From contig MNYK01000002.1 of NCBI GenBank assembly GCA_001873115.1, positions 1-52,367 on the forward strand: a DNA stretch of 52,367 nucleotides. The letters are read 5' to 3'. Position 1 is the first letter of the stretch. The number at the start of each line of letters is the position of its first letter. The notes under the pieces were generated by a model. That model was given only the letters and a program-made list of their open reading frames with translations, was not told the origin of the DNA and ran no database searches. The translations under genes were made by a program, and so were the position numbers. Shown piece after piece: positions 4,009-35,669 of the stretch. The stretch comes from Desulfobacterales bacterium CG2_30_60_27. Lineage in GTDB: Bacteria; Desulfobacterota; Desulfobulbia; Desulfobulbales; CG2-30-60-27.

Positions 4009-4037
4009 TTGACAATTCCGCCGCGGTTCAGTATCAG
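4009..4037 (+). promoter_or_regulatory. sigma70-like promoter (TTGACA-17-TATCAG) for RS1/cob operon
   Basis: TTGACA at 4009-4014, a 17-nt spacer, TATCAG at 4032-4037. The same arrangement is duplicated at 35410-35438. Confidence 0.5.
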
Positions 4038-4040
4038 AAA

Positions 4041-4209
4041 GGCTCATCTGGGTGCTTCCGCAAGGAGGCGTAAAAGGGAACCCTGTGCAAATCAGGGACG
4101 GGCCCGCCGCTGTAACCGGTGACAACTTCCGCAGATTGCCACTGTCCTTTAGGGACGGGAAGGCGCGGAAGGCGAACGAACCGGAAGTCAGAAGACCTAC
4201 CCGGGTGCC
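4041..4209 (+). promoter_or_regulatory. cobalamin riboswitch RS1
   Basis: Conserved cores are present: AAAAGGGAACCCTGTGCAAATCAGGGAC..GCCCGCCGCTGTAACCGG..GCCACTG..GGGAAGGCG and a B12 box AGTCAGAAGACCTACC. Confidence 0.9.
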
Positions 4210-4269
4210 TGGCATGCAGACCTCCGCGGCGTGAGGAATGCCAAGAAGATATTCGGGTAGCAGGGATGT

Positions 4270-11662: not shown

Positions 11663-11687
11663 TCAACGCTATGTAATTACTACCCAT

Positions 11688-11866
11688 GTTCCCCTGGTGG
11701 CGGCTGCATCACTGCACCGCTGAAAAGGGAATCCCGTGCAAATCGGGAGCGCTGGGCCGGCGCTGTAAACAGGGACTGCAACCGCATTTTGTCACTGTCC
11801 GGAATTTTAGGATGGGAAGGCGCGGCCAGCGGGATGATCTGTGAGTCAGAAGACCTGCCAGGGAAC
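11688..11866 (+). promoter_or_regulatory. cobalamin riboswitch RS2
   Basis: P1 GTTCCCCTGG / CCAGGGAAC. Cores AAAAGGGAATCCCGTGCAAATCGGGAGC..GCCGGCGCTGTAAAC..GTCACTG..GGGAAGGCG and B12 box AGTCAGAAGACCTGCC. Confidence 0.9.
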
Positions 11867-11897
11867 AAATATCAGATGGCTGTTTTGCCCAAAGACA

Positions 11898-13306: not shown

Positions 13307-13375
13307 GGCGCAACCGGGTTCACAGCCTTTCCTTGACCATTATCTGGAAATCGGGTAACAAGACCAAGAGTTAAT

Positions 13376-13533
13376 TCTCAGGCGCTCGTAACGAGCATAA
13401 CAGGGAACCCCGTGTGAACCGGGGACGGGCCCACCGCTGTGACCGGGGACGAATTCCGCAAAATGTCACTGTTCGTATGAACGGGAAGACGCGGAAGGAG
13501 AACGATCCGGGAGTCAGAAGACCTGCCTGAGAG
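13376..13533 (+). promoter_or_regulatory. cobalamin riboswitch RS3
   Basis: P1 CTCAGGCG / CTGCCTGAG. Cores ACAGGGAACCCCGTGTGAACCGGGGAC..GCCCACCGCTGTGACCGG..GTCACTG..GGGAAGACG and B12 box AGTCAGAAGACCTGCC. Confidence 0.9.
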
Positions 13534-13593
13534 CATACGTCTATCTTCGCGGACAGAAGATATGGCGACCAGTTCCAGGATATAAAGGGCTTT

Positions 13594-25944: not shown

Positions 25945-26150
25945 TGAGTGCGTTTAAACAAACGACAGGAATGTTTCATAGGATTTTGCATAAAACCGCC
26001 GCCTGCTGGGCTGCCAGCCAGTTTTAGACCTCCCAATTTTAGCCCGGTACCAGGACCAGATTTTTGGGAGGTGTCAAACACTGGAAGTGCTATACTGAAA
26101 ACGGATAATAATTTGTTCGACATTACTACCTATCACGAAAGGAGGATGTA

Positions 26151-28028
26151 ATGGCAACAGCTAAAAACCCTATTGATGAAAAATCGATTTGGGATGATGC
26201 CCGCCAGATGCTGCGCAAGGCGGAACGAGACGGGGTTGAGACCGCTTGGGACCGCTTGGAGCATCAGACTCCTCACTGTACATTCTGTGAAAGCGGCCTT
26301 TCCTGCCGAAACTGTACCATGGGGCCGTGTCGGATCAGCAAAAAAGCCCCCTTGGGGGTCTGCGGTGCCGATGCCGATGTGATCGTTGCCCGCAACTTTG
26401 GCCGCTTTGTGGCCGGAGGCGCTGCCGGCCATTCCGACCATGGCCGTGACTGTATTGAGGCCCTGTATAACGTGGCCCACGGACTCACCAAGGATTACAC
26501 TATTAAGGATGAGACCAAACTGCTCCGCATTGCCAATGAGTTGGGGATTGCCACCAAAGGGCGGCCAATCCTTGATATTGCCAAGGATTTAAGCGCTGAA
26601 TTTTATTCAAACTTTGGCAGCCTGCGCAAGGAGCTCTCTTTTGCCTGCCGGGTTCCGGAAAAACGAAAGCAAATTTGGCGCAATCTTGGCATCACCCCCC
26701 GTGGTGTTGATCGTGAGATTGCCGAAATGATGCACCGCACTCATATGGGTTGTGACAACGATGCCGCCAACACCATGCTGCACAGTGCCCGCACATGTCT
26801 GGCCGATGGCTGGGCTGGATCGATGATCGCTACCGAGATCTCTGATATTCTGTTCGGTACGCCAAGCCCCAGAAAATCTAAGGTGAACCTCGGCGTTATC
26901 AAAGAGGATCAGGTTAATATCCTGGTGCATGGCCATAACCCCATTGTTTCCGAGAAAATTGTCGAGGCGGTCAATGACCCGGAACTCATCGCCCTGGCCA
27001 AGGCAAAAGGGGCTGCCGGCATCAACCTGGCAGGGCTTTGCTGTACAGGCAATGAGTTGATGATGCGCCGAGGCATTCCCATGGCCGGCAACCACCTGAT
27101 GACCGAGTTGGCCATTGTCACCGGCGCTGTTGAGCTCATCGTCGTAGATTATCAGTGCATCATGCCCAGCCTGGTCACGGTTGGCAATTGTTACCACACC
27201 AAGATGGTCACCACCGCCGACAAGGCAAAATTTCGCGGGGCCGAACATGTAAAATTTGAGATGCACAACGGTATGGCACAGGCGCGCAAGGTGGTGCGCA
27301 TGGCCATTGAGCGCTTTCCTTTACGCAACAAAGATCGGGTTGAAATCCCACAGGGGCCGATTGAACTGGTTACCGGATTTTCTAATGAGGTCCTCCTGGC
27401 CGCACTGGGCGGTACCTTGACGCCACTTGTTGACGCGATTAAGGCGGGGAAAGTTAGAGGAGCGGTTGGCATCGTCGGCTGCAACAATCCCAAGTACAAA
27501 CAGGATTACTGCAATGTCAACCTGGCCAAGGAGCTTATCAAGAAAGATATCCTGGTGCTGGTAACCGGGTGCGTTACCACCGCCACCGGCAAGGCAGGGC
27601 TTTTGATGCCGGAAGCCATAGCAATGGCGGGACCGGGCCTCAAGGAAGTTTGTGGTTCCTTAGGTATTCCGCCGGTATTGCATATGGGCAGTTGTGTTGA
27701 CAATGCGCGCATCCTGCAACTTGCCGCGCTCCTTGCCAATGAACTTGGTGTGGATATTTCTGACCTGCCGCTGGCCGGGTCATCGCCGGAATGGTATTCG
27801 GAAAAAGCTGCCGCCATTGGCACTTACTGTGTTGCCTCCGGCAGTTACACCCACCTCGGTCATCCTCCCAACATTACCGGCTCTGGAGTGGTAACCAACC
27901 TGGCCCTTGAAGGACTCGATAATCTTCTCGGCGCCTGCTTCGGCATTGAACCGGATCCCTTTAAGGCTGCCGAACTCATTGATAAGCGGATCAGACAAAA
28001 ACGCAAGGCCTTGGGGCTTTCTGAATAA
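26151..28028 (+). CDS. cooS: anaerobic Ni,Fe carbon-monoxide dehydrogenase catalytic subunit
   Basis: 625 aa. N-terminal Cys pattern CTFCESGLSCRNCTMGPCRI..GVCGA, then ..HGHNP.. and ..GSCVDN. GGAGGA RBS. Confidence 0.9.
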   Translation: MATAKNPIDEKSIWDDARQMLRKAERDGVETAWDRLEHQTPHCTFCESGLSCRNCTMGPCRISKKAPLGVCGADADVIVARNFGRFVAGGAAGHSDHGRDCIEALYNVAHGLTKDYTIKDETKLLRIANELGIATKGRPILDIAKDLSAEFYSNFGSLRKELSFACRVPEKRKQIWRNLGITPRGVDREIAEMMHRTHMGCDNDAANTMLHSARTCLADGWAGSMIATEISDILFGTPSPRKSKVNLGVIKEDQVNILVHGHNPIVSEKIVEAVNDPELIALAKAKGAAGINLAGLCCTGNELMMRRGIPMAGNHLMTELAIVTGAVELIVVDYQCIMPSLVTVGNCYHTKMVTTADKAKFRGAEHVKFEMHNGMAQARKVVRMAIERFPLRNKDRVEIPQGPIELVTGFSNEVLLAALGGTLTPLVDAIKAGKVRGAVGIVGCNNPKYKQDYCNVNLAKELIKKDILVLVTGCVTTATGKAGLLMPEAIAMAGPGLKEVCGSLGIPPVLHMGSCVDNARILQLAALLANELGVDISDLPLAGSSPEWYSEKAAAIGTYCVASGSYTHLGHPPNITGSGVVTNLALEGLDNLLGACFGIEPDPFKAAELIDKRIRQKRKALGLSE

Positions 28029-28546
28029 TCCAAGTGTCCCGTCAATAAGTGAAAGGCGCTGGAAAAGATGAGAGATTTGTTTTTTAAAAAATCAAACGGC
28101 AAAAATCGCCGGATCAGGCGCTTGAGTGGGCGGCGGGAATCGGGCAATGGTGCTGCGCGGCAATGCCATTGCTCAGCCCTGCCACGTAGTTTGGTGGTTG
28201 AGCTCCTTATTCTAATTCGGGGGTGTACGCCGGAACCCCAGAAAATTCTGACCCGATACCCCCCCTGAAGGAATTACAGGATGTCAAAGGTATGGTATTG
28301 ACGCCGGAAATCTTACGGGCACTAAGCCCATATCGTCAACATCCGAGTAGATTCGGTATGTATGAATTGCGGGATCGCGAAACGGAACCGATAGAATACG
28401 AAGTGCTGCTTGATCTGACGCAACATAAGGAGCCCAGGGGACAGTGGCACAGTGTATAGAGGCCTATTGCCCATTTTCGCACGAATCCTTGCGGTCACCC
28501 AACAACATCCAGAAATCCTTCGACGTATTGTATGTATGTTGTGCCC

Positions 28547-28737
28547 TCACGATGATCCTTTTTCCGCATCCAGCACCTTGCGCACCAAAAGGCCCAGTTC
28601 CCGCACCGAAAGGGGTTTCATCAGGTACCCCCGGATACCCAAAGCCTGGGCCTGCTACTTGTTGATCAACTCGCTGAAGCCGGTGCAGAGGATGACAGGC
28701 AGATCCGGCCGGATGGCCATTGCCTTTTGGGGCTAAT
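28547..28737 (-). pseudogene. remnant of a response-regulator receiver domain (C-terminal half) with an in-frame TAG
   Basis: The minus strand translates AMAIRPDLPVILCTGFSELINK*QAQALGIRGYLMKPLSVRELGLLVRKVLDAEKGSS*. There is no N-terminal half, and the fragment abuts the TIR element at 28738. Confidence 0.65.
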
Positions 28738-29056
28738 GAGAACATAGGTGCATTTTCACGCAACAGAACTTCCGTTTCTGTTTTGGCACCGGAAGTTATC
28801 CGGAATAACTTGTTAGCATAAGCAATTAATCGTGATGGCACCAAAAAAAATGAACCGAAACTACAAGATTATGGGCGAAAATCACGAGAAACAGAACTCA
28901 AAAACCTCAACCCAGAAGAAGAGCCAGACGCTTTTTAGAAGTCGAATTTAAAGAAAATGGCCTTTCCTGACCCGCAGTTGCCGGAAATGGTAATATATTC
29001 CAGTGCTAACTTATAAATAGGGAACTTCTATTGCGTAAAAACGCAACTATGTTCTC
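28738..29056. mobile_element. MITE-like non-coding element with roughly 36-bp terminal inverted repeats
   Basis: Left TIR GAGAACATAGGTGCATTTTCACGCAACAGAACTTCC (28738-28773). Right TIR 29021-29056 is its reverse complement at 31 of 36 positions by my count. The interior is about 247 bp, AT-richer, and has no ORF. Confidence 0.55.
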
Positions 29057-29211
29057 GTTGACCCTTCTATACGGTTCTTGTCCATCGGCCCGCTGCTTCG
29101 CTCCACGCTTCCTTCCCACGGTCGTTCACCCTGCCGCAGTTGCGCTTCGCTTCGTTCGCTGTGATCAATTTACGGTGGGACTTGCACCCAGAAGTTTGCG
29201 CCCATGCTGGG

Positions 29212-29250
29212 CGCAAACAATAAAGGCCGCCGCTTTGGAGCGGCAGCCTT
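29212..29250 (-). terminator. intrinsic terminator after the rhodanese/cytochrome operon
   Basis: Minus strand AAGGCTGCCGCT-CCAA-AGCGGCGGCCTT followed by TATTGTTT. A second perfect 10-bp hairpin lies at 29194-29218. Confidence 0.65.
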
Positions 29251-29277
29251 GGATACTTCTCTTGCGCGGCGTGGGGA

Positions 29278-30225
29278 TCAGTGGGTCATGTAGCCCCAGG
29301 CGTATCTTTCCATGGAAACATCCTTGTCGTCAGCCGCCTCAAGGATGGAGCCGTCAAAGATTTTAACGTTGGTATAGCCTAGCAGATCGTGCAGGACAAA
29401 ATAACCTAACGAGGCCTGTAGGCCATGATTGCTGTAAGTGATGATCTCAACATTTTTGTCAGCCGGGATGCCGACTCCCGCCGCCATTTGTGTAAGGGTT
29501 TCGGTGTTTTTCATAAAAGCGGGCGAAAGGCTGACACCCGCATCAGACATATAGCTGGCCGGCCAGATCCGCGCTTTGAGGAGATGGCCGTAGCGCTTGA
29601 TATGGCTCTTTTTTTCGTGGCCGAAAAATTCCGTCGCTGACCGGTTGTCGAGCAGGACCGACTTGCCTGCTTTGATCTTCGCCTTTACTTCTTCCAGGGA
29701 GATTAATTTAGCCGCCACCATTTTGGCGGTAAAATTGCCGCGCCCTGGGGTTTTGGCCTCTTTGGAGACAGGTTTTTCCTCCTGTTCCCAGGCGGCGAAT
29801 CCGCCGTTCAGGATGGAGACCTTGTCGTGTCCCAGGGTATGGAGGGTCCAGAGGGCCCTGGCGCTCTTGCAGGTGTCTGTGGCGGTAACCCCCTCATCAT
29901 AGAGAATGATCTGCGAGTCGTTGTTGACGCCGTAGCTGCGAAGCATCGCCTCCAGGACGTCGGGTTTGGGCATCATGAAGCCGACAAACTTTTCGTTCAT
30001 GGTCTGCCAGGGGCCAAAGGCCTTTACTGCCCCTGGGATATGGTTCTTGTTGTAGTGGGTGAAGGCACCAACATCGAGAATCACGATGCCGGGCGTGTTG
30101 AGGTTTTTTGCCAGCCAGTCGCTGCTGACCAGCGGCGGGGTGTCCGCCAGGGCCGATATTGATGAACCGACCAGTATCGTCACGGCGGCCAGCATAACCG
30201 CCAGTTTAGTCTTCCAGGTGTTCAT
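29278..30225 (-). CDS. exported tandem-rhodanese-domain protein with Ser where the paralogue has its putative active-site Cys
   Basis: Signal peptide MNTWKTKLAVMLAAVTILVGSSISALA and two rhodanese-like halves. The C-terminal loop reads IITYSNHGLQAS, where the paralogue upstream has IIVYCNSSQFAG. Confidence 0.75.
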   Translation of the reverse strand: MNTWKTKLAVMLAAVTILVGSSISALADTPPLVSSDWLAKNLNTPGIVILDVGAFTHYNKNHIPGAVKAFGPWQTMNEKFVGFMMPKPDVLEAMLRSYGVNNDSQIILYDEGVTATDTCKSARALWTLHTLGHDKVSILNGGFAAWEQEEKPVSKEAKTPGRGNFTAKMVAAKLISLEEVKAKIKAGKSVLLDNRSATEFFGHEKKSHIKRYGHLLKARIWPASYMSDAGVSLSPAFMKNTETLTQMAAGVGIPADKNVEIITYSNHGLQASLGYFVLHDLLGYTNVKIFDGSILEAADDKDVSMERYAWGYMTH

Positions 30226-30255
30226 TAGGAATCCTCCAACATCTTGAAATTATGA

Positions 30256-31206
30256 TTACTTGGTTATAAATCCCCATGAATAAACGGCAATGGGAAGATT
30301 CTCGTTCGCGGCATACTCAATCATCGAGCCATCAAAGACGCTCACATTTTTGTAGCCTAACCTTTCGTGGAGAACGAAAAAGCCCATTCCCGCAAACTGG
30401 GAGGAATTACAGTAGACGATGATGCGGGTGTTTTTGTCCGTCGGCAGGCCGACGCCCTTGGCCATGGTCGTCAGGTCTTCCTTGCTTTTGATCACGGCCG
30501 GGGCGCGATTAATACCGGCGTTGGTCATGTAGTCGGCTGGCCAGGTGAGTGAACCAGGGATATGGCCGAACCGTTTGACCTCGCCACTCTTCGCAAAGCC
30601 GAAGTGCTGGTCGCTGTTCCTCACATCCAGAAAGGTCGTCCCGCCTTTTTTGAGGCTGGCGCTAATATCCTGGAGGGTGGTTAGCTTGGAAGAGTCCAGC
30701 TTGGCGATGAAATTGCCCGGTTGCGGGGTTGGTTTTTTGTTGTCGATTGTCCGCCCTTCGAAGGTCCATTTGGTGAAGCCGCCATCAAGGTAGGAGATAT
30801 TTTTGTGGCCCATGGCGTTCATGATCCAATAAGCCGACGCCCCTTGGCTGGCGTCACTGACAGTATTGCCGTGGTCGTAGATGATTACGTGGGAGTCATT
30901 GTTGATTCCCAACTTCTGAAAATAGTCGGTGATGACCTCCGCGGTGGGCACCAGATGACATCCTGTCTCATCGTTTTTCGGGTCCCAACTATCGTAGGGC
31001 AGATTAACAGCGCCGGGAATGTGCCCTACGCCGTAATTGTCGGCGGTTCTGACGTCAAGGATGACAAGCCCCTTGGCGCTTAGATTTTTGGTTAGCCATT
31101 CCGTGCTTGCCAGCGCGTCGGCTGCCGCGGGCGTCGGCGCGGTCGCAAAACCGGCCAGCAGCGCCAACAGCATGTATATGATATAGTGCAACGGTCTCCT
31201 GTTCAT
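30256..31206 (-). CDS. exported tandem-rhodanese-domain sulfurtransferase
   Basis: ATG 31206 with AAGGAG upstream. Signal peptide MNRRPLHYIIYMLLALLAGFATAPTPAAA. A Cys is present in the C-terminal-domain loop (VYCNSSQFAG). Confidence 0.75.
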   Translation of the reverse strand: MNRRPLHYIIYMLLALLAGFATAPTPAAADALASTEWLTKNLSAKGLVILDVRTADNYGVGHIPGAVNLPYDSWDPKNDETGCHLVPTAEVITDYFQKLGINNDSHVIIYDHGNTVSDASQGASAYWIMNAMGHKNISYLDGGFTKWTFEGRTIDNKKPTPQPGNFIAKLDSSKLTTLQDISASLKKGGTTFLDVRNSDQHFGFAKSGEVKRFGHIPGSLTWPADYMTNAGINRAPAVIKSKEDLTTMAKGVGLPTDKNTRIIVYCNSSQFAGMGFFVLHERLGYKNVSVFDGSMIEYAANENLPIAVYSWGFITK

Positions 31207-31263
31207 GCAAGTACTCCTTTTTGTTCCGAATTGGCTCTCAATGTCCTTGTCCGTGCAGATCAC

Positions 31264-32622
31264 TTACTTTTTGATCTTGCCGGGTATCTTGTCAAAGATG
31301 ATCTTTTGGTTGGCCTTGGGATCTTCCGGCACCAGATCATCCTTGGTCAGGAAGAGTTCCTTGTGGCCGTGGCAGGCATTACAGGAACTGTTCTGCTTGG
31401 TGTGGCGTTGGATGTTGTGAACCGAAGCGGAGTTCCAGGTCGGCAATGCGTCGTAGTTGGAAATGAGATCTTCGGGGCCGGGCTTGCCCGTCAACACATC
31501 TTGGAAGGACCGGAGCGATGCCAAAGAGTCCTTCTTCATTGGACTATGCCGTACCAGGTTGTACTTGTAGGGGTTGTTGGGAGTTATATCGATATTCTTG
31601 CCGATTTTGAAGGTGAAAAGCGGATCGGAAGGGAAGATAACTTTGATCTTGCCTGCTTCCTTGATGTCCAACGATACATGGCAATTGGTGCAGTTGAAAT
31701 ACTCGTTGGCATGGCATACCGCACAACCCAAAGTCCCTTCTGGATGGGCCTTGTGCATGGCGGTTTTGGAGCTGCCGGCCTTGCTGTCGGGATGACATCC
31801 CTCGCAACGAGAGGTTTCCGTGTCGTAGTAACGTTTGCTGGTTTCGGGCTTGGTGTTATGCAGTTGATCCCCCTTGTGGCAATCCACGCAGACCATCTGC
31901 ACCTTCTCGTAATGTACGTCGGCGGTTTTGCCGAGCAGACCCATATACTCGCCCGCGAAACGGGAGCCGTGGCAGGCGTAACAGGTCTTTTCCATGGGGG
32001 GAGTCTTCTGAAAGAGATGGCGGTCCAAAAGTCCGCCCTTGGCGACCTCCGGCCAGGCAACGTGGCAGCTGCCGCAAGAGGTGTGGCATTCAGCACAGTC
32101 GAGTTTCCAGGCGGCCGGCAGCAAGGTCTCTTCCATCTTGTGCGGCTGGCTGATGGTGCCGGTGATGTCGGCGATCCCTTTCAGGGTGTAGTGCATGGAA
32201 TTTTTGAAGGTCGAGGAGATATCATCGTGGCAATCCTTGCAGACGCCGCCACCACCTTCATCGGAAGGATCTTTGATGAGATCCTTGTGGGCCTTTTCCT
32301 CGTTAAAAACGTTTGTGCCTTTGTGGCAAGTGATGCAGCCAATTTTGCCATGGTTCGATTCGACAAATTCCATGGCAACGCCGAAGGTGTCCCGGCCCCT
32401 CACCTGAGGGGCGGTAACGCCTCAACCGGCGATACCGGCGGACGCGCTGGCCGCCGCGGCACCGAATTCGTCCATTTTCCCAAGGTCAGTGTGACACCTG
32501 ATGCACGCACTGCTGGGGTTTGCCTCTTCCTCGGCGGCAAGCGTTCCAGCAACGCCGAACGTACACGCCAACCCTAGCATGGTGGCACTCGCCACGGTGA
32601 GCCTTTTTTTGCCCATCCTCAT
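31264..32622 (-). CDS. periplasmic multihaem cytochrome c (11 CXXCH) requiring read-through of an in-frame UGA at 32424-32422; candidate selenoprotein
   Basis: Two same-frame ORFs (32622-32425 and 32403-31264) are separated only by TGA plus 6 sense codons. The upstream piece has the signal peptide and CIRCH. The downstream piece has 10 CXXCH and no signal peptide. AAGGAGA RBS before ATG 32622. Confidence 0.65.
32395..32412 (-). promoter_or_regulatory. candidate bacterial SECIS hairpin
   Basis: GCCCCUC-AGGU-GAGGGGC is a perfect 7-bp stem starting 9 nt after the UGA. A further 2 bp are possible across a one-nt bulge. Confidence 0.5.
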
Positions 32623-33268
32623 TGTGCTTTCTCCTTCTGCGTAAGAATTTATATGGATCCTTTGAGGTCAAAAGTATTAGCAGTGGCGGTTGGCGCAGCA
32701 CGATAACTGGGTAACAGCGCATGATGTCGCCTAGCAGAGATCTCAGACTCTAACAATTCAGTAGGCTTGGTTGTTATCACACTTTGGCCCATTTACATAT
32801 ATGGCAAATTGTCGCAGCTACGCTAGAACAGCGGTTTGGCCCTGAGATGATGTCGGCTTGAGCAACGGGTTCTACGGAGAGTCATTCAAACCGAGGGCTG
32901 GCAAGCTTGATCGGTCCAAACACATTGGTGGTAGTCGACGACGCACCGTTCGAGGCGACCTTCATCCACTCAGGGAATAGAATCAGCTTTGTCACCCAGC
33001 CGGAAGTATCTGGTAAAGGCAAGTATATCGTAGATTATGCGCGGACGATTGGACTAAAACTAGTATTCACATGATACCAGGCGGATTGGATCGGCTTCTG
33101 ATGAGCAGAGAGTGGCTGACTGAGCACGCTAGGCATGGATTCGAGCATGATGTTGCCGAGCATAGATAATCATCGCCAGCGGGAGGTGCGACACGGGAAG
33201 GATTCGTCCGAAAATGCCCATCAGAAAATCGAGCAACTATAGGGTTCTTTTGCTAATCTTTAACGACC

Positions 33269-33793
33269 ATGACCACTGTGCCTGGCACCGAGGTTTACCA
33301 GCTTCACGTCTGGATTCGCCAAATCAGCCCAATGATTTGGCGAAGGCTCCTTGTGCGTAGCGACAGCACGATCGCAGATTTGCACTACACGATACAGATC
33401 GCCTTAGGCTGGTCGGATGCGCATTTCAATCTGTTTCACATTCACGGCCAGGACTATGGCGTCTACCACGACGGCGGCATCAGCTTCTCACACAAGCCCG
33501 ATCGTGTCAAGCTGAGCGATTTCAAGTTCCGTACCAACGAGCGATTTCGTTATGAATACGACTTCGGCGACCGCTGGCAACATGAAGTGCGTGTTGAGCA
33601 CGCCTGGCGCCGGAAGCCAAACGCGCCTATCCCCGCTGCATTGGCGGCCAACGGGGTGCACCACCGGAAGACTGTGGTGGCCCCTTTGCATTCATGGCGC
33701 GACGGGATGAAATTCCTCTGCAACCCTATGACTTGCTTGAGGAATTTCAGGACCGTCTTGAAAACAACGATGAGGAAGGTATTAAGGTATTAA
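33269..33793 (+). pseudogene. pRiA4b ORF-3-like (IS-passenger type) protein gene, frameshifted and IS-interrupted at its 3' end
   Basis: YQLHVWIRQISPMIWRRLLV..YEYDFGDRWQHEVRVE is the family core. The conserved continuation LAPEAKRAYPRCIGGQRGAPPEDCGGPFAF is present but in another frame from about 33604. The IS left end lies at 33790. Confidence 0.7.
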
Positions 33794-35332
33794 CTCAACT
33801 TTCTGACTTGATTTAACTCGCTAGTATTCCGTAATTTTTATTATGCAAAGAGCGCATTGTTTCCAGGAGCTCTACTGCTGCCCCCATCATTGCATCAATC
33901 ATCTTACTGATGACATCCGCAGCCAATTCTCCTGTGCTACGGATTTTTTCAATGACAAGGGCCATCAGTCGCTGCAACGCCTCGACCAAGCTCAAATCCT
34001 TCACCTCGGCACAACAGGCATGAAAAAGACTGCCAACCGTCCTCTGGTCGGTATGCAGCCGTTGCCTAAACGCGAGGAACATATAGCGGGTCATGACCAC
34101 GGTCGCATGGCCGATCAGGCCGTCATAGTCCCGCAACTGGGCTTCCTTTTCCAGCTTCAGGTGCTGCTTGAGCATCTTGAAGCACACCTCGACATCCCAT
34201 CTCTTGCCGTAGATCCGGATGATTTCATCGTCAGCCAATTCCAGGTCGGTGGCAAGCACGGCCAGCCAGTCCCTCTTGTGGCGGTGGCGCACAAACACGA
34301 TTTTTACCCGCTGCCCCTGCTTGGTCTCCACCACGACACTGGCCAGAATCCTTGCCAGGCCAGAACGTTTTTTCAGCCGACCGTACAACCTCCCCAGCGT
34401 ATACCATTGCCCCTCATGTTTGTAGAAGACCTTGGGCATGTCCTTCAGCATGCAGATCACCGGGCGGTACGCAGACAACGTCGCGATGATTGCGGGAAAG
34501 GAGAACCAACTGTCCATCAGGATATAGTCGGCGTCTATCCCTGCTGCCAATACCCGCTTGAGCATTACGGCCAGAGGAGCGGTCGACTTGCGGATAGCCT
34601 CCATGCGCCGCGCATGTCCACAGGTCCGCTTGTCGACAGGCTTCCGCGCTTCCTGAATCCTCGACTTCGTATTGGCCGAGGAGCCCAGGACAAAGTCCAG
34701 GGGGATAAAACTATAGCCGTCCGACCAGCCTATGGTGAGCATGTTGAACCCCCGGAGGGACTTGCCCAATGTATGATCGAAGACCCAGGCGAGCAGCTCA
34801 ACCTTTTTCGAACGGGACCGGTCGTAAGTGCTGCTGTCAAAGATCAAAACCTTTTCCCGCTCACCGTCGGTGAGCAGAGAAAAGACGGTCGCAATTTTCA
34901 CGGCCAGGCCCAGCATGAGCTTACGCCAGTTATGCCGGGGATTGCGCAGCAGGTTATAGGCCGCATCCTTGCCAAACCCCAGAGCCTGATTTTTGGCGAT
35001 GCCGCGGAAGAAATTGTTCCCCTCAAAGGGCAACTTGAAAATCGCGCCGAACACTTTCAGCGGCGCTGCCCCTCGCAATTTGTGAATACCGGCGGCATTG
35101 AGCAAGTGGCCAAGCTGGAAGTCACTGAAAAACGAATCAATGGTATTCCCCAGGCGAATTGCCTCTTGCTGCTCAGCAAGTTTATGTATATACTCCATCA
35201 GTCCTTTCTCCTTGTTTTTATTATGTTTTTGCCAAACACAATATACCAGGGACGAAAGGACTTTTCTATTAAAAAATCAACTATTTCAAGCTGTTAGCAT
35301 GCGTTGTCCCGCAAGTCAGAAAGTTGAGTTAA
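33790..35332 (-). mobile_element. insertion sequence, IS4 superfamily (IS701-like), about 1.54 kb
   Basis: Perfect 21-bp terminal inverted repeats TTAACTCAACTTTCTGACTTG (33790-33810) and CAAGTCAGAAAGTTGAGTTAA (35312-35332). The outer TTAA may be a 4-bp target duplication. A single DDE transposase ORF lies inside. Confidence 0.85.
33813..35198 (-). CDS. DDE transposase, IS4-type
   Basis: 461 aa with the Y-x2-R-x3-E-x6-K signature in YGKRWDVEVCFKMLK. It fills the space between the TIRs. Confidence 0.85.
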   Translation of the reverse strand: MEYIHKLAEQQEAIRLGNTIDSFFSDFQLGHLLNAAGIHKLRGAAPLKVFGAIFKLPFEGNNFFRGIAKNQALGFGKDAAYNLLRNPRHNWRKLMLGLAVKIATVFSLLTDGEREKVLIFDSSTYDRSRSKKVELLAWVFDHTLGKSLRGFNMLTIGWSDGYSFIPLDFVLGSSANTKSRIQEARKPVDKRTCGHARRMEAIRKSTAPLAVMLKRVLAAGIDADYILMDSWFSFPAIIATLSAYRPVICMLKDMPKVFYKHEGQWYTLGRLYGRLKKRSGLARILASVVVETKQGQRVKIVFVRHRHKRDWLAVLATDLELADDEIIRIYGKRWDVEVCFKMLKQHLKLEKEAQLRDYDGLIGHATVVMTRYMFLAFRQRLHTDQRTVGSLFHACCAEVKDLSLVEALQRLMALVIEKIRSTGELAADVISKMIDAMMGAAVELLETMRSLHNKNYGILAS

Positions 35333-35409: not shown

Positions 35410-35438
35410 TTGACAATTATGCCACATTTCAGTATCGG
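35410..35438 (+). promoter_or_regulatory. sigma70-like promoter (TTGACA-17-TATCGG), duplicate of 4009-4037
   Basis: Same -35, spacer length and -10 position as the RS1 promoter. Confidence 0.5.
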
Positions 35439-35441
35439 AAA

Positions 35442-35610
35442 GGTTCATCTGGGTGCTTCCGCAAGGAGGCGTAAAAGGGAACCCTGTGCAAATCAGGGAC
35501 GGGCCCGCCGCTGTAACCGGTGACAAATTCCGCAGATTGCCACTGTCCTTTAGGGACGGGAAGGCGCGGAAGGCGAAAGAACCGGAAGTCAGAAGACCTA
35601 CCCGGGTGCA
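35442..35610 (+). promoter_or_regulatory. cobalamin riboswitch RS4, near-identical copy of RS1
   Basis: Same conserved cores and the same B12 box AGTCAGAAGACCTACC as RS1. Only a handful of substitutions across the aptamer by manual alignment. Confidence 0.9.
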
Positions 35611-35669
35611 TGGCATGCAGACCTCCGCGGCGGAGGAAGGCGACCGTAGTATTCGGGTAGCAGGGATGT

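Follow-up and report, generated by a model that had tools for sequence, protein, structure and literature searches.

A widespread family of eleven-haem cytochromes c with a predicted selenocysteine and its association with rhodaneses

The DNA investigated here is a stretch of 52,367 nucleotides (nt), hereafter the window, which covers positions 1 to 52,367 of contig MNYK01000002.1 of Desulfobacterales bacterium CG2_30_60_27 (assembly GCA_001873115.1). It carries an operon of three minus-strand genes encoding a multihaem cytochrome c and two exported rhodanese paralogues, which we named RhdA and RhdB. The cytochrome gene contains a single in-frame TGA that we predict to be read as selenocysteine (Sec67), and the predicted product is a single 452-residue cytochrome c that is exported and binds 11 haems covalently. 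Together with its relatives it constitutes a previously unrecognised, widespread family of selenoprotein cytochromes.

The original prediction had proposed a candidate selenocysteine cytochrome, and the comparative data now bear this out through a conserved in-frame TGA, a hairpin resembling a selenocysteine insertion sequence (SECIS), relatives with cysteine at the same position, and the lack of a signal peptide in the downstream frame. We compiled 86 related loci: 6 were obtained through contig look-ups, and 80 were taken from the at least 591 stretches encoding a relative that turned up when one genome of each GTDB species was scanned. An in-frame TGA occupied one and the same alignment column in 82 of these loci, from five phyla, and TAA or TAG never took its place. 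In these 82 loci the frame upstream of the TGA encodes a signal or lipoprotein peptide together with a single CXXCH motif, and the TGA itself lay in a G-U-G/A motif, 109-115 codons ahead of a conserved anchor motif. The tblastn alignments continued across the TGA, from residue 1 to residue 452. Small open reading frames (ORFs) of 59-87 amino acids were found upstream of every homologue examined; the 5' part of the window gene is likewise listed by gene callers as a separate 66-residue ORF. A search of 5.8 billion proteins returned more than 260 homologues, nearly all of 370-385 residues and starting exactly after the TGA position, so that the signal peptide is missing from them. Inspection of the window revealed neither a signal peptide nor a Shine-Dalgarno sequence belonging to the 3' part itself.

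The hairpin lies 13-31 nt downstream of the U of the UGA, within an extended helix at about 32384-32423 in the window. The 27-nt hairpin window had a mean folding energy of -12.1 kcal/mol, compared to -3.5 for other in-frame windows of the same genes. When all in-frame windows of a gene were ranked by stability, the hairpin window fell in the top 5% for 69 of the 76 genes. The hairpin of the window taken alone had a z score of -1.9 relative to shuffled sequences. Complementarity was kept in all of the 28 distinct stem/loop versions, which fall into at least seven stem classes and differ by clade (CCCCUC/GAGGGG, GGCUCC/GGAGCC, GCGCCGGA/UUCGGCGC, GCCCGC/GCGGGC, ACAGCU/AGCUGU). Compensatory changes were also seen within clades, for example GCGCCGGA:UUCGGCGC versus GCACCGGA:UUCGGUGC, and the apical loops (GUU, AGGU or AGUUA) contain G and U. 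No bacterial SECIS family of Rfam matched the hairpin. It is predicted to help in decoding the TGA.

A profile search of 1.84 billion cluster representatives yielded 203 representatives of the family at E <= 1e-30. Nine distant ones (P0380, P0384, P0393, P0399, P0401, P0409, P0414, P0426 and P0223) have cysteine in the selenocysteine column, usually within G-C-G-G, and gene calling yields each of them as one full-length protein. In P0160 (L093, 150-1493), the ENA call gives Trp and a "full-length" protein of 447 amino acids, and the codon is TGA at the DNA level. The Trp in the same column of P0364, P0369, P0391 and P0403 is probably also a TGA read with another genetic code. One locus, L017, from a metagenome-assembled genome of Thermodesulfovibrionales, has an in-frame TAA 49 codons before the anchor motif in an otherwise intact orthologue; this could reflect a pseudogene or an assembly error.

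The cytochrome has 11 CXXCH motifs, 1 before the TGA and 10 after it. Conservation was counted across 76 unique full-length cytochrome sequences. The 22 Cys and 11 His of the haem motifs were invariant, as were Sec67 with its preceding Gly and ten His outside the motifs (H91, 112, 144, 202, 237, 255, 290, 293, 359 and 402). The invariant residues also included Met210, Arg221, Glu225, Asp235, Arg358, Trp396 and a few others; as a possible eleventh distal ligand, Met210 was graded near-invariant. At least one haem would thus lack a conserved His as its distal ligand. Across the same 76 sequences no Cys was conserved outside the haem motifs, so that the selenocysteine is the sole conserved free chalcogen nucleophile. 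Sec67 follows the His of haem 1 by 23 residues in the window protein and by about 22-33 residues across the family, and the intervening segment is of low complexity. This variable length and low complexity suggest that the segment is a flexible arm presenting the selenocysteine in a Gly-flanked loop at its end.

Structural and profile comparisons placed the cytochrome only in general terms. Pfam Cytochrome_C7 and Cytochrom_c3_2 scored above their cut-offs and are generic motifs, and no selenoprotein or cytochrome model of NCBIfam matched, including TIGR04315 (tetrathionate-reductase-family octahaem) and NF041027 (GSU2204-family CXXCH selenoproteins). An AlphaFold2 model of the 385 residues after the selenocysteine, built from a 146-sequence alignment, reached a predicted local distance difference test score (pLDDT) of 93 and a predicted template modelling score of 0.89, and showed a helical haem-binding body with a small beta-rich subdomain. 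A previous model from a 37-sequence alignment was discarded (pLDDT 60.6, meaningless Foldseek matches). Foldseek, which is weak on loop-rich haem proteins, found no neighbour of the retained model in the PDB (best template modelling score about 0.1) in a library that extends to April 2026 and may lack MccSep, the selenoprotein discussed below. A single-sequence search of the PDB gave only noise, and a profile search gave only generic haem-motif similarity (cytochrome 28pb, 4e-8; OcwA, 4e-5; NrfA, 1e-3).

We then compared the two rhodaneses. RhdA and RhdB share 40% identity over 308 residues (E = 2e-89), and each contains two Pfam rhodanese domains (PF00581), which confirms the paralogy and common two-domain layout proposed at the outset. 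In HMMER alignments to the structures 1uar and 3hwi, the catalytic Cys of YCRxxERSS was matched by the Cys of the RhdA motif VYCNSSQ and by the Ser of the RhdB motif TYSNHGL. All RhdA orthologues keep this Cys (IVYCN[ST]xQ), as all RhdB orthologues keep the Ser (ITYSNxGxQAA). A separate RhdB search gave the same picture, all 120 homologues having Ser there; the original prediction had placed a Ser at the catalytic position, and these alignments uphold it. Among these 120 homologues no Cys was conserved in the mature protein, and a Cys in the N-terminal domain of RhdB (TDTCKSA), considered as a conserved site, was dropped because most orthologues have Ala there. RhdA is thus a predicted active rhodanese and RhdB a predicted Cys-less one. 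RhdB had been put forward as a carrier or adaptor: a role as adaptor or binder is still consistent with these data, and that of a carrier is not, since a protein without a conserved Cys cannot carry a persulfide covalently. Curated models matched the pair only weakly, with 57 bits for RhdA and 69 bits for RhdB against ExtH (NF040901; cut-off, 200 bits), and 107 and 99 bits, respectively, against the SseA-type equivalog model PRK11493 (cut-off, 250 bits).

The cytochrome and rhodanese genes are linked well beyond the window. In the clade of the window (66-85% identity) the order was always cytochrome, RhdA, RhdB wherever a locus was covered by enough sequence, with both rhodaneses present at 22 loci, and every contig opened in a search started from RhdB held the same cassette. 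The synteny on which the original prediction depended is therefore conserved, and no homologue with an established unrelated function was encountered. Of 76 loci, about 61 have a rhodanese gene immediately beside the cytochrome gene and in the same orientation, and in a further four one lies no more than 3.5 kb away. The type of rhodanese varied by phylum, from tandem SseA-like proteins in the clade of the window to two or four PspE-like domains on lipoproteins elsewhere. In Anaerolineae the neighbouring gene encodes a lipoprotein of four PspE-like domains (about 575 residues), in Dethiobacter and relatives it encodes a two-domain lipoprotein (about 319 residues), and in Tissierellia a two-domain rhodanese lies upstream of the cytochrome; the active-site Cys is present in all three cases. 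Moreover, we found three natural fusions of cytochrome and rhodanese (L049, P0407 and P0381). Recurrence of non-orthologous rhodaneses beside the same cytochrome, together with these fusions, is strong comparative evidence that the two proteins act together. A metagenomic Cys form, P0223 (L091, 6001-7689), carries an N-terminal fusion to a NapC/NirT-type tetrahaem domain (PF03264), which hints that the electrons may come from the quinol pool.

The layout of the operon in the window is given in Table 1. The coordinates originally proposed for the three minus-strand genes, their gaps and the terminator all held. The genes are separated by 57 nt (cytochrome-RhdA, 31207-31263) and 30 nt (RhdA-RhdB, 30226-30255), and the terminator begins 28 nt past the RhdB stop and has a T-rich tail. 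Each gene has a Shine-Dalgarno sequence, and RhdA starts with ATG behind AAGGAG. Signal peptides had been predicted for all three products, and direct reading of the sequences identified each N terminus as of the general secretory (Sec) type, with a basic n-region, a hydrophobic core and an A-x-A-like site. A lipoprotein reading of the window cytochrome was dropped, the Cys of "LGLAC" not being conserved in close relatives; lipoboxes were found in family members from Bacillota, Spirochaetota and Chloroflexota.

Table 1. Coordinates of the operon features within the window
Feature	Position	Strand	Description
Cytochrome gene	31264-32622	minus	Read through single in-frame TGA, 452 residues
Cytochrome 5' part	32425..32622	minus	Signal peptide, haem-1 CIRCH, low-complexity Ala/Gly linker to ...IAG
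Predicted Sec67 UGA, G-U-G motif	32422..32424	minus	Context ...AGIAG-U-GVTAPQVRGRD...
SECIS-like hairpin core	32394..32412	minus	Stem CCCCUC/GAGGGG, apical loop AGGU
Cytochrome 3' part	31264..32421	minus	385 codons + stop; haems 2-11, beta-rich subdomain
RhdA, exported tandem-domain rhodanese	30256..31206	minus	Predicted catalytic Cys in IIVYCNSSQFAG; PF00581 twice
RhdB, exported tandem-domain rhodanese paralogue	29278..30225	minus	Ser at catalytic position, IITYSNHGLQAS
Intrinsic terminator closing the operon	29223..29250	minus	12-bp stem, 8 G-C pairs, then TATTGTTT

The arrangement recurs in dozens of independent genomes and is not a chance one, and the cytochrome, RhdA and RhdB are inherited jointly, as one cassette. 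Nucleotide similarity to relatives was confined to 29286-32636, with no match outside that span. The G+C content was 51-54% across 26-34 kb (26001-34000) and 58-65% in the flanks, and a PRiA4_ORF3 gene and a DDE_5 transposase lie directly upstream of the operon (33269-35198). In Desulfolithobacter dissulfuricans (L092), the cassette is bracketed by Y1 and IS110 transposases. Similarity that ends exactly at the borders of the cassette, together with the dip in G+C content and the neighbouring transposases, suggests that the three genes form a self-contained, horizontally mobile operon that was acquired horizontally. A gene for a LysR-type regulator adjoins the cassette at both Anaerolineae loci with Pfam context (L003 and L089), downstream in one and divergently upstream in the other.

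Elsewhere in the window, the operon is followed by an ORF-poor gap of 1.2 kb (28030-29220), beyond which a prismane/CO-dehydrogenase-family protein is encoded at 26151-28028 on the plus strand (PF03063, 607 bits). This gap also contains, at 28953-29135 on the minus strand and some 90 nt beyond the operon terminator, a match to the group II intron model D1-D4-3 that stays below threshold (28.8 bits versus a gathering score of 32; E = 0.0014). As a reverse-transcriptase ORF is absent, the match may represent the remnant of an intron. The window also contains four cobalamin riboswitches of 100-127 bits (4033-4218, 11678-11876, 13363-13544 and 35434-35619, plus strand), surrounded by B12 biosynthesis genes (CbiG, tetrapyrrole methylase) and an uptake cluster (TonB receptor, TonB, BtuF-like, FecCD).

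Hosts of the family belong to Desulfobulbales, Desulfurivibrionaceae and other Thermodesulfobacteriota, to Nitrospirota (Ca. Sulfobium, Thermodesulfovibrionales), Bacillota (Dethiobacter, Syntrophomonadaceae, Tissierellia, Anoxynatronum), Spirochaetota (Sphaerochaeta) and Chloroflexota (Anaerolineae). Sulfur reducers and disproportionators are well represented among them (Desulfurivibrionaceae, Desulfolithobacter, Ca. Sulfobium, Thermodesulfatator, Dethiobacter). The truncated cytochrome ORFs are named in several ways. JGI/IMG calls P0008, P0041, P0050, P0188 and many others "thiosulfate/3-mercaptopyruvate sulfurtransferase", a label that was probably transferred from the natural cytochrome-rhodanese fusions, and NCBI calls the Dethiobacter copy a "conserved hypothetical cytosolic protein". 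We found no description of the family as selenoproteins in a literature search whose coverage excluded most subscription-journal papers. Papers on Desulfurivibrio, Dissulfuribacter and cable bacteria mention periplasmic rhodaneses and make no mention of the cytochrome family.

One family member may have been seen at the protein level. In Dethiobacter alkaliphilus, the multihaem protein DealDRAFT_1917, encoded beside rhodanese genes, was reliably more abundant on thiosulfate than on ferrihydrite (PMC10376724). The same study placed the local family member, at 22% identity, among the SirA/OTR-like "octahaems" and did not recognise the selenocysteine (PMC10376724). The family member that we identified in D. 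alkaliphilus AHT1, EEG77164 (L090), begins with a lipoprotein-type segment, shares the TGA and the hairpin, and has a rhodanese gene next to it. Two proteins from Desulfolithobacter were also considered: the rhodanese GF1_13980 of its proteome is neither RhdA nor RhdB (437 amino acids, encoded elsewhere in the genome), and "GF1_29880", detected as a 65-residue protein, could not be tied to the cassette.

The closest known system is MccSep (ExtKL, GSU2937-2936) of Geobacter sulfurreducens with the rhodanese ExtH, which is functionally analogous, evolved independently and is not a homologue. MccSep, published in August 2026, is a periplasmic pentahaem selenoprotein whose UGA was formerly taken as a stop between gsu2937 and gsu2936 (PMC13510729). 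It is a polysulfide reductase essential for respiration of elemental sulfur (S0), its selenocysteine sits on a mobile D-G-U-P loop and works with a Cys-ligated haem, and its cluster extHIJKL includes ExtH; in vitro it reduces selenite, with polysulfide preferred about sevenfold (PMC13510729). The original prediction had found no match to a named sulfur system. This stands insofar as no homologous system was detected and falls insofar as a named analogue exists (PMC13510729). Both cytochromes are periplasmic multihaem cytochromes c with one selenocysteine at an in-frame UGA annotated as a stop, which splits the gene in two; in both, the residue lies in a Gly-containing loop (D-G-U-P in MccSep, G-U-G here) that is mobile in MccSep and predicted to be so here, and a SECIS-like hairpin follows the UGA. 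Both families include selenocysteine and cysteine forms, have a rhodanese in the same cluster and are centred on sulfur-cycling Desulfobacterota and Nitrospirota. In contrast, no homology was detected, with no match to NF040886 even at E = 10 and no PDB match by sequence or fold. The protein described here has 11 haems instead of 5, its selenocysteine is residue 67 of 452, after haem 1, and not in a C-terminal immunoglobulin-like domain, and it has no conserved haem-ligating Cys such as C239 of MccSep. Moreover, the cassette lacks porin or outer-membrane partners (ExtI, ExtJ) and has a Cys/Ser pair of rhodanese paralogues in place of ExtH, and the cytochrome family reaches Bacillota, Spirochaetota and Chloroflexota. 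A 2026 catalogue of prokaryotic selenoproteins lists only ExtKL, the GSU2204 family and the OTR family as cytochrome-type families (PMC13188914).

Other systems resemble parts of the cassette. The tandem rhodaneses (SseA, PRK11493; 1uar, 3hwi and 1urh) share the two-domain fold with RhdA and RhdB: in all of them the N-terminal domain carries an inactive motif (Y-D), and the C-terminal domain the active-site cradle. They are cytoplasmic, whereas RhdA and RhdB are predicted to be exported; the RhdA loop is C-N-[ST]-x-Q-x-A and not CRxGxR or CGSGVT, and RhdB has Ser for Cys and no other conserved Cys. TsdA, SoxAX, DsrJ, the octahaem MccA/SirA and OTR act on thiosulfate, tetrathionate or sulfite. 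They resemble the cytochrome as periplasmic multihaem or dihaem enzymes with a chalcogen residue at or near a haem, and they differ from it in that it has 11 haems and a predicted selenocysteine instead of Cys, and matches no curated model. In the Sud-Psr system of Wolinella succinogenes, a periplasmic rhodanese feeds polysulfide-sulfur to a terminal reductase. A periplasmic rhodanese that feeds a reductase is also described for SbdP and the sulfur reductase of Aquifex, as reported from Aussignargues 2012 in PMC12998232. In both systems, as in the cassette, an exported rhodanese-type sulfurtransferase is paired with a respiratory enzyme, a sulfur-reducing one in the two known cases, and this likeness makes substrate delivery the likely role of RhdA. 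Their reductase is, in contrast, a molybdopterin enzyme (PsrABC/Sre), neither a cytochrome nor a selenoprotein, and no psr genes were present beside the cassette in the neighbourhoods inspected.

Taken together, gene context and the one Dethiobacter proteomic observation point to a sulfur-relay function of the cassette, and the original interpretation is supported overall. We propose that the module is an extracytoplasmic sulfane-sulfur oxidoreductase acting on polysulfide, thiosulfate or S0, a reading whose chances we place somewhat above even. RhdA would take sulfane sulfur from polysulfide, thiosulfate or S0-derived species, hold it as a Cys persulfide and offer it to the mobile selenocysteine loop. 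The selenocysteine arm would attack this persulfide, or the substrate directly, and the resulting Se-S adduct would be reduced by two electrons via the haem chain, with release of sulfide and regeneration of the selenol. In hosts that oxidise sulfide or disproportionate sulfur, the same steps would run in reverse. RhdB may serve as a non-covalent binder of substrate or product (an anion) or as a docking adaptor.

Several observations weigh against this proposal. The substrate is not fixed by sequence alone, and MccSep also reduces selenite. Sulfur respiration is not known from many of the hosts (Anaerolineae, Sphaerochaeta, Tissierellia), and no quinol dehydrogenase or other redox partner was conserved beside the cassette among the contigs inspected. 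Some distant family members have M, L, H or Y in the selenocysteine column, and selA, selB, selC and selD are not in the 52-kb window, which holds only a tRNA-Arg, so that selenocysteine insertion by the host is assumed. Finally, the Dethiobacter observation is the only experimental datum for the family, and the equation of DealDRAFT_1917 with EEG77164 follows from matching gene context and not from the locus tag.

Other explanations have to be set against the proposed oxidoreductase. Every public annotation calls the genes as though the TGA were an ordinary stop. On that reading the products would be a short secreted peptide with one haem and a separate decahaem protein in the cytoplasm, and the rhodaneses would lie next to a generic electron-transfer cytochrome without any relation to it. 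Haems cannot be attached to a c-type cytochrome that lacks a signal peptide, and the downstream frame has no Shine-Dalgarno sequence. The frame, the identity of the TGA and its G-U-G context are kept across five phyla, as is the hairpin with its compensatory changes, the Cys forms are translated as one protein, and fusions to rhodanese exist. Comparative data already contradict an ordinary stop, and we consider it highly improbable. A subtler alternative concerns the role of Sec67, which could be the sixth (distal) ligand of one haem in an enzyme that joins or splits thiosulfate, tetrathionate or other S-S species as TsdA and SoxAX do. In its favour, the 11 CXXCH motifs outnumber the 10 invariant His found outside them, no conserved Cys is available as a ligand, and conservation within the first 70 residues is limited to haem 1 and the selenocysteine. 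Moreover, TsdA, SoxAX and MccSep all use a His/Cys haem as their catalytic centre, and the thiosulfate-linked abundance in Dethiobacter fits. Near-invariant Met210 could, however, supply the eleventh distal ligand, and Sec67 lies outside the modelled span, so that no geometry stands behind a His/Sec haem, which we regard as unlikely. In the boldest form of the idea, Sec67 would ligate haem 1 axially, giving the first selenocysteinate-ligated haem in nature, and the enzyme with its rhodaneses would be the long-sought extracytoplasmic activator of S0, polysulfide or thiosulfate in disproportionators and in reducers that lack Psr/Phs (Dethiobacter, Anaerolineae, Sphaerochaeta); to this combination we assign a small chance.

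The chemistry might also run in the opposite direction or concern another chalcogen. An oxidative module would act in the periplasm on sulfide or persulfide and yield sulfane sulfur or thiosulfate, in keeping with the nearest relatives, which are Desulfurivibrionaceae and Desulfobulbales, and with the presence of the cassette in Desulfolithobacter, lineages with known sulfide oxidisers and disproportionators. Two periplasmic rhodanese genes, possibly those for RhdA and RhdB, are, moreover, reported to be very highly expressed in Desulfurivibrio alkaliphilus (PMC13047784). The cassette nevertheless also occurs in fermentative or reductive Bacillota, Spirochaetota and Anaerolineae, the Dethiobacter protein rose with thiosulfate as electron acceptor, and the analogue MccSep runs reductively. 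We therefore see a reversed direction as a rather doubtful prospect. Reduction or detoxification of selenite or tellurite, or selenium recycling, with the rhodaneses carrying perselenide and the selenocysteine-haem site reducing the oxyanions, would fit the selenite reduction by MccSep in vitro and the weak matches to the ExtH model, which is named "selenite/tellurite reduction operon rhodanese-like protein". Both ExtH scores are far under the cut-off, however, MccSep favours polysulfide and has S0 respiration as its physiological role, and at least 591 species-level genomes from sulfidic, anoxic habitats suggest an abundant and not a trace substrate, which makes a selenium or tellurium function quite unlikely.

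If the selenocysteine reading is true, annotation systematically truncates a family found in at least 591 species-level genomes of five phyla: the signal peptide, haem 1 and the selenocysteine are lost, and the remainder is mislabelled as "hypothetical", "cytosolic" or "sulfurtransferase". The family would represent a second, independent pairing of selenocysteine with a haem chain and a rhodanese, after MccSep, identified in 2026 as the polysulfide reductase that had been missing in Geobacter, and the invariant Cys-to-Ser change in RhdB offers a clean case for what a "dead" rhodanese does. The cassette is directly testable, since several carriers are cultured isolates or named strains, among them Desulfolithobacter dissulfuricans, Dethiobacter alkaliphilus, Thermanaerothrix solaris, Anoxynatronum buryatiense and strain B35. 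Should the proposed sulfane-sulfur oxidoreductase prove right, it would be a candidate for the unknown first enzyme of elemental-sulfur disproportionation, and for thiosulfate or sulfur reduction in organisms without molybdenum reductases.

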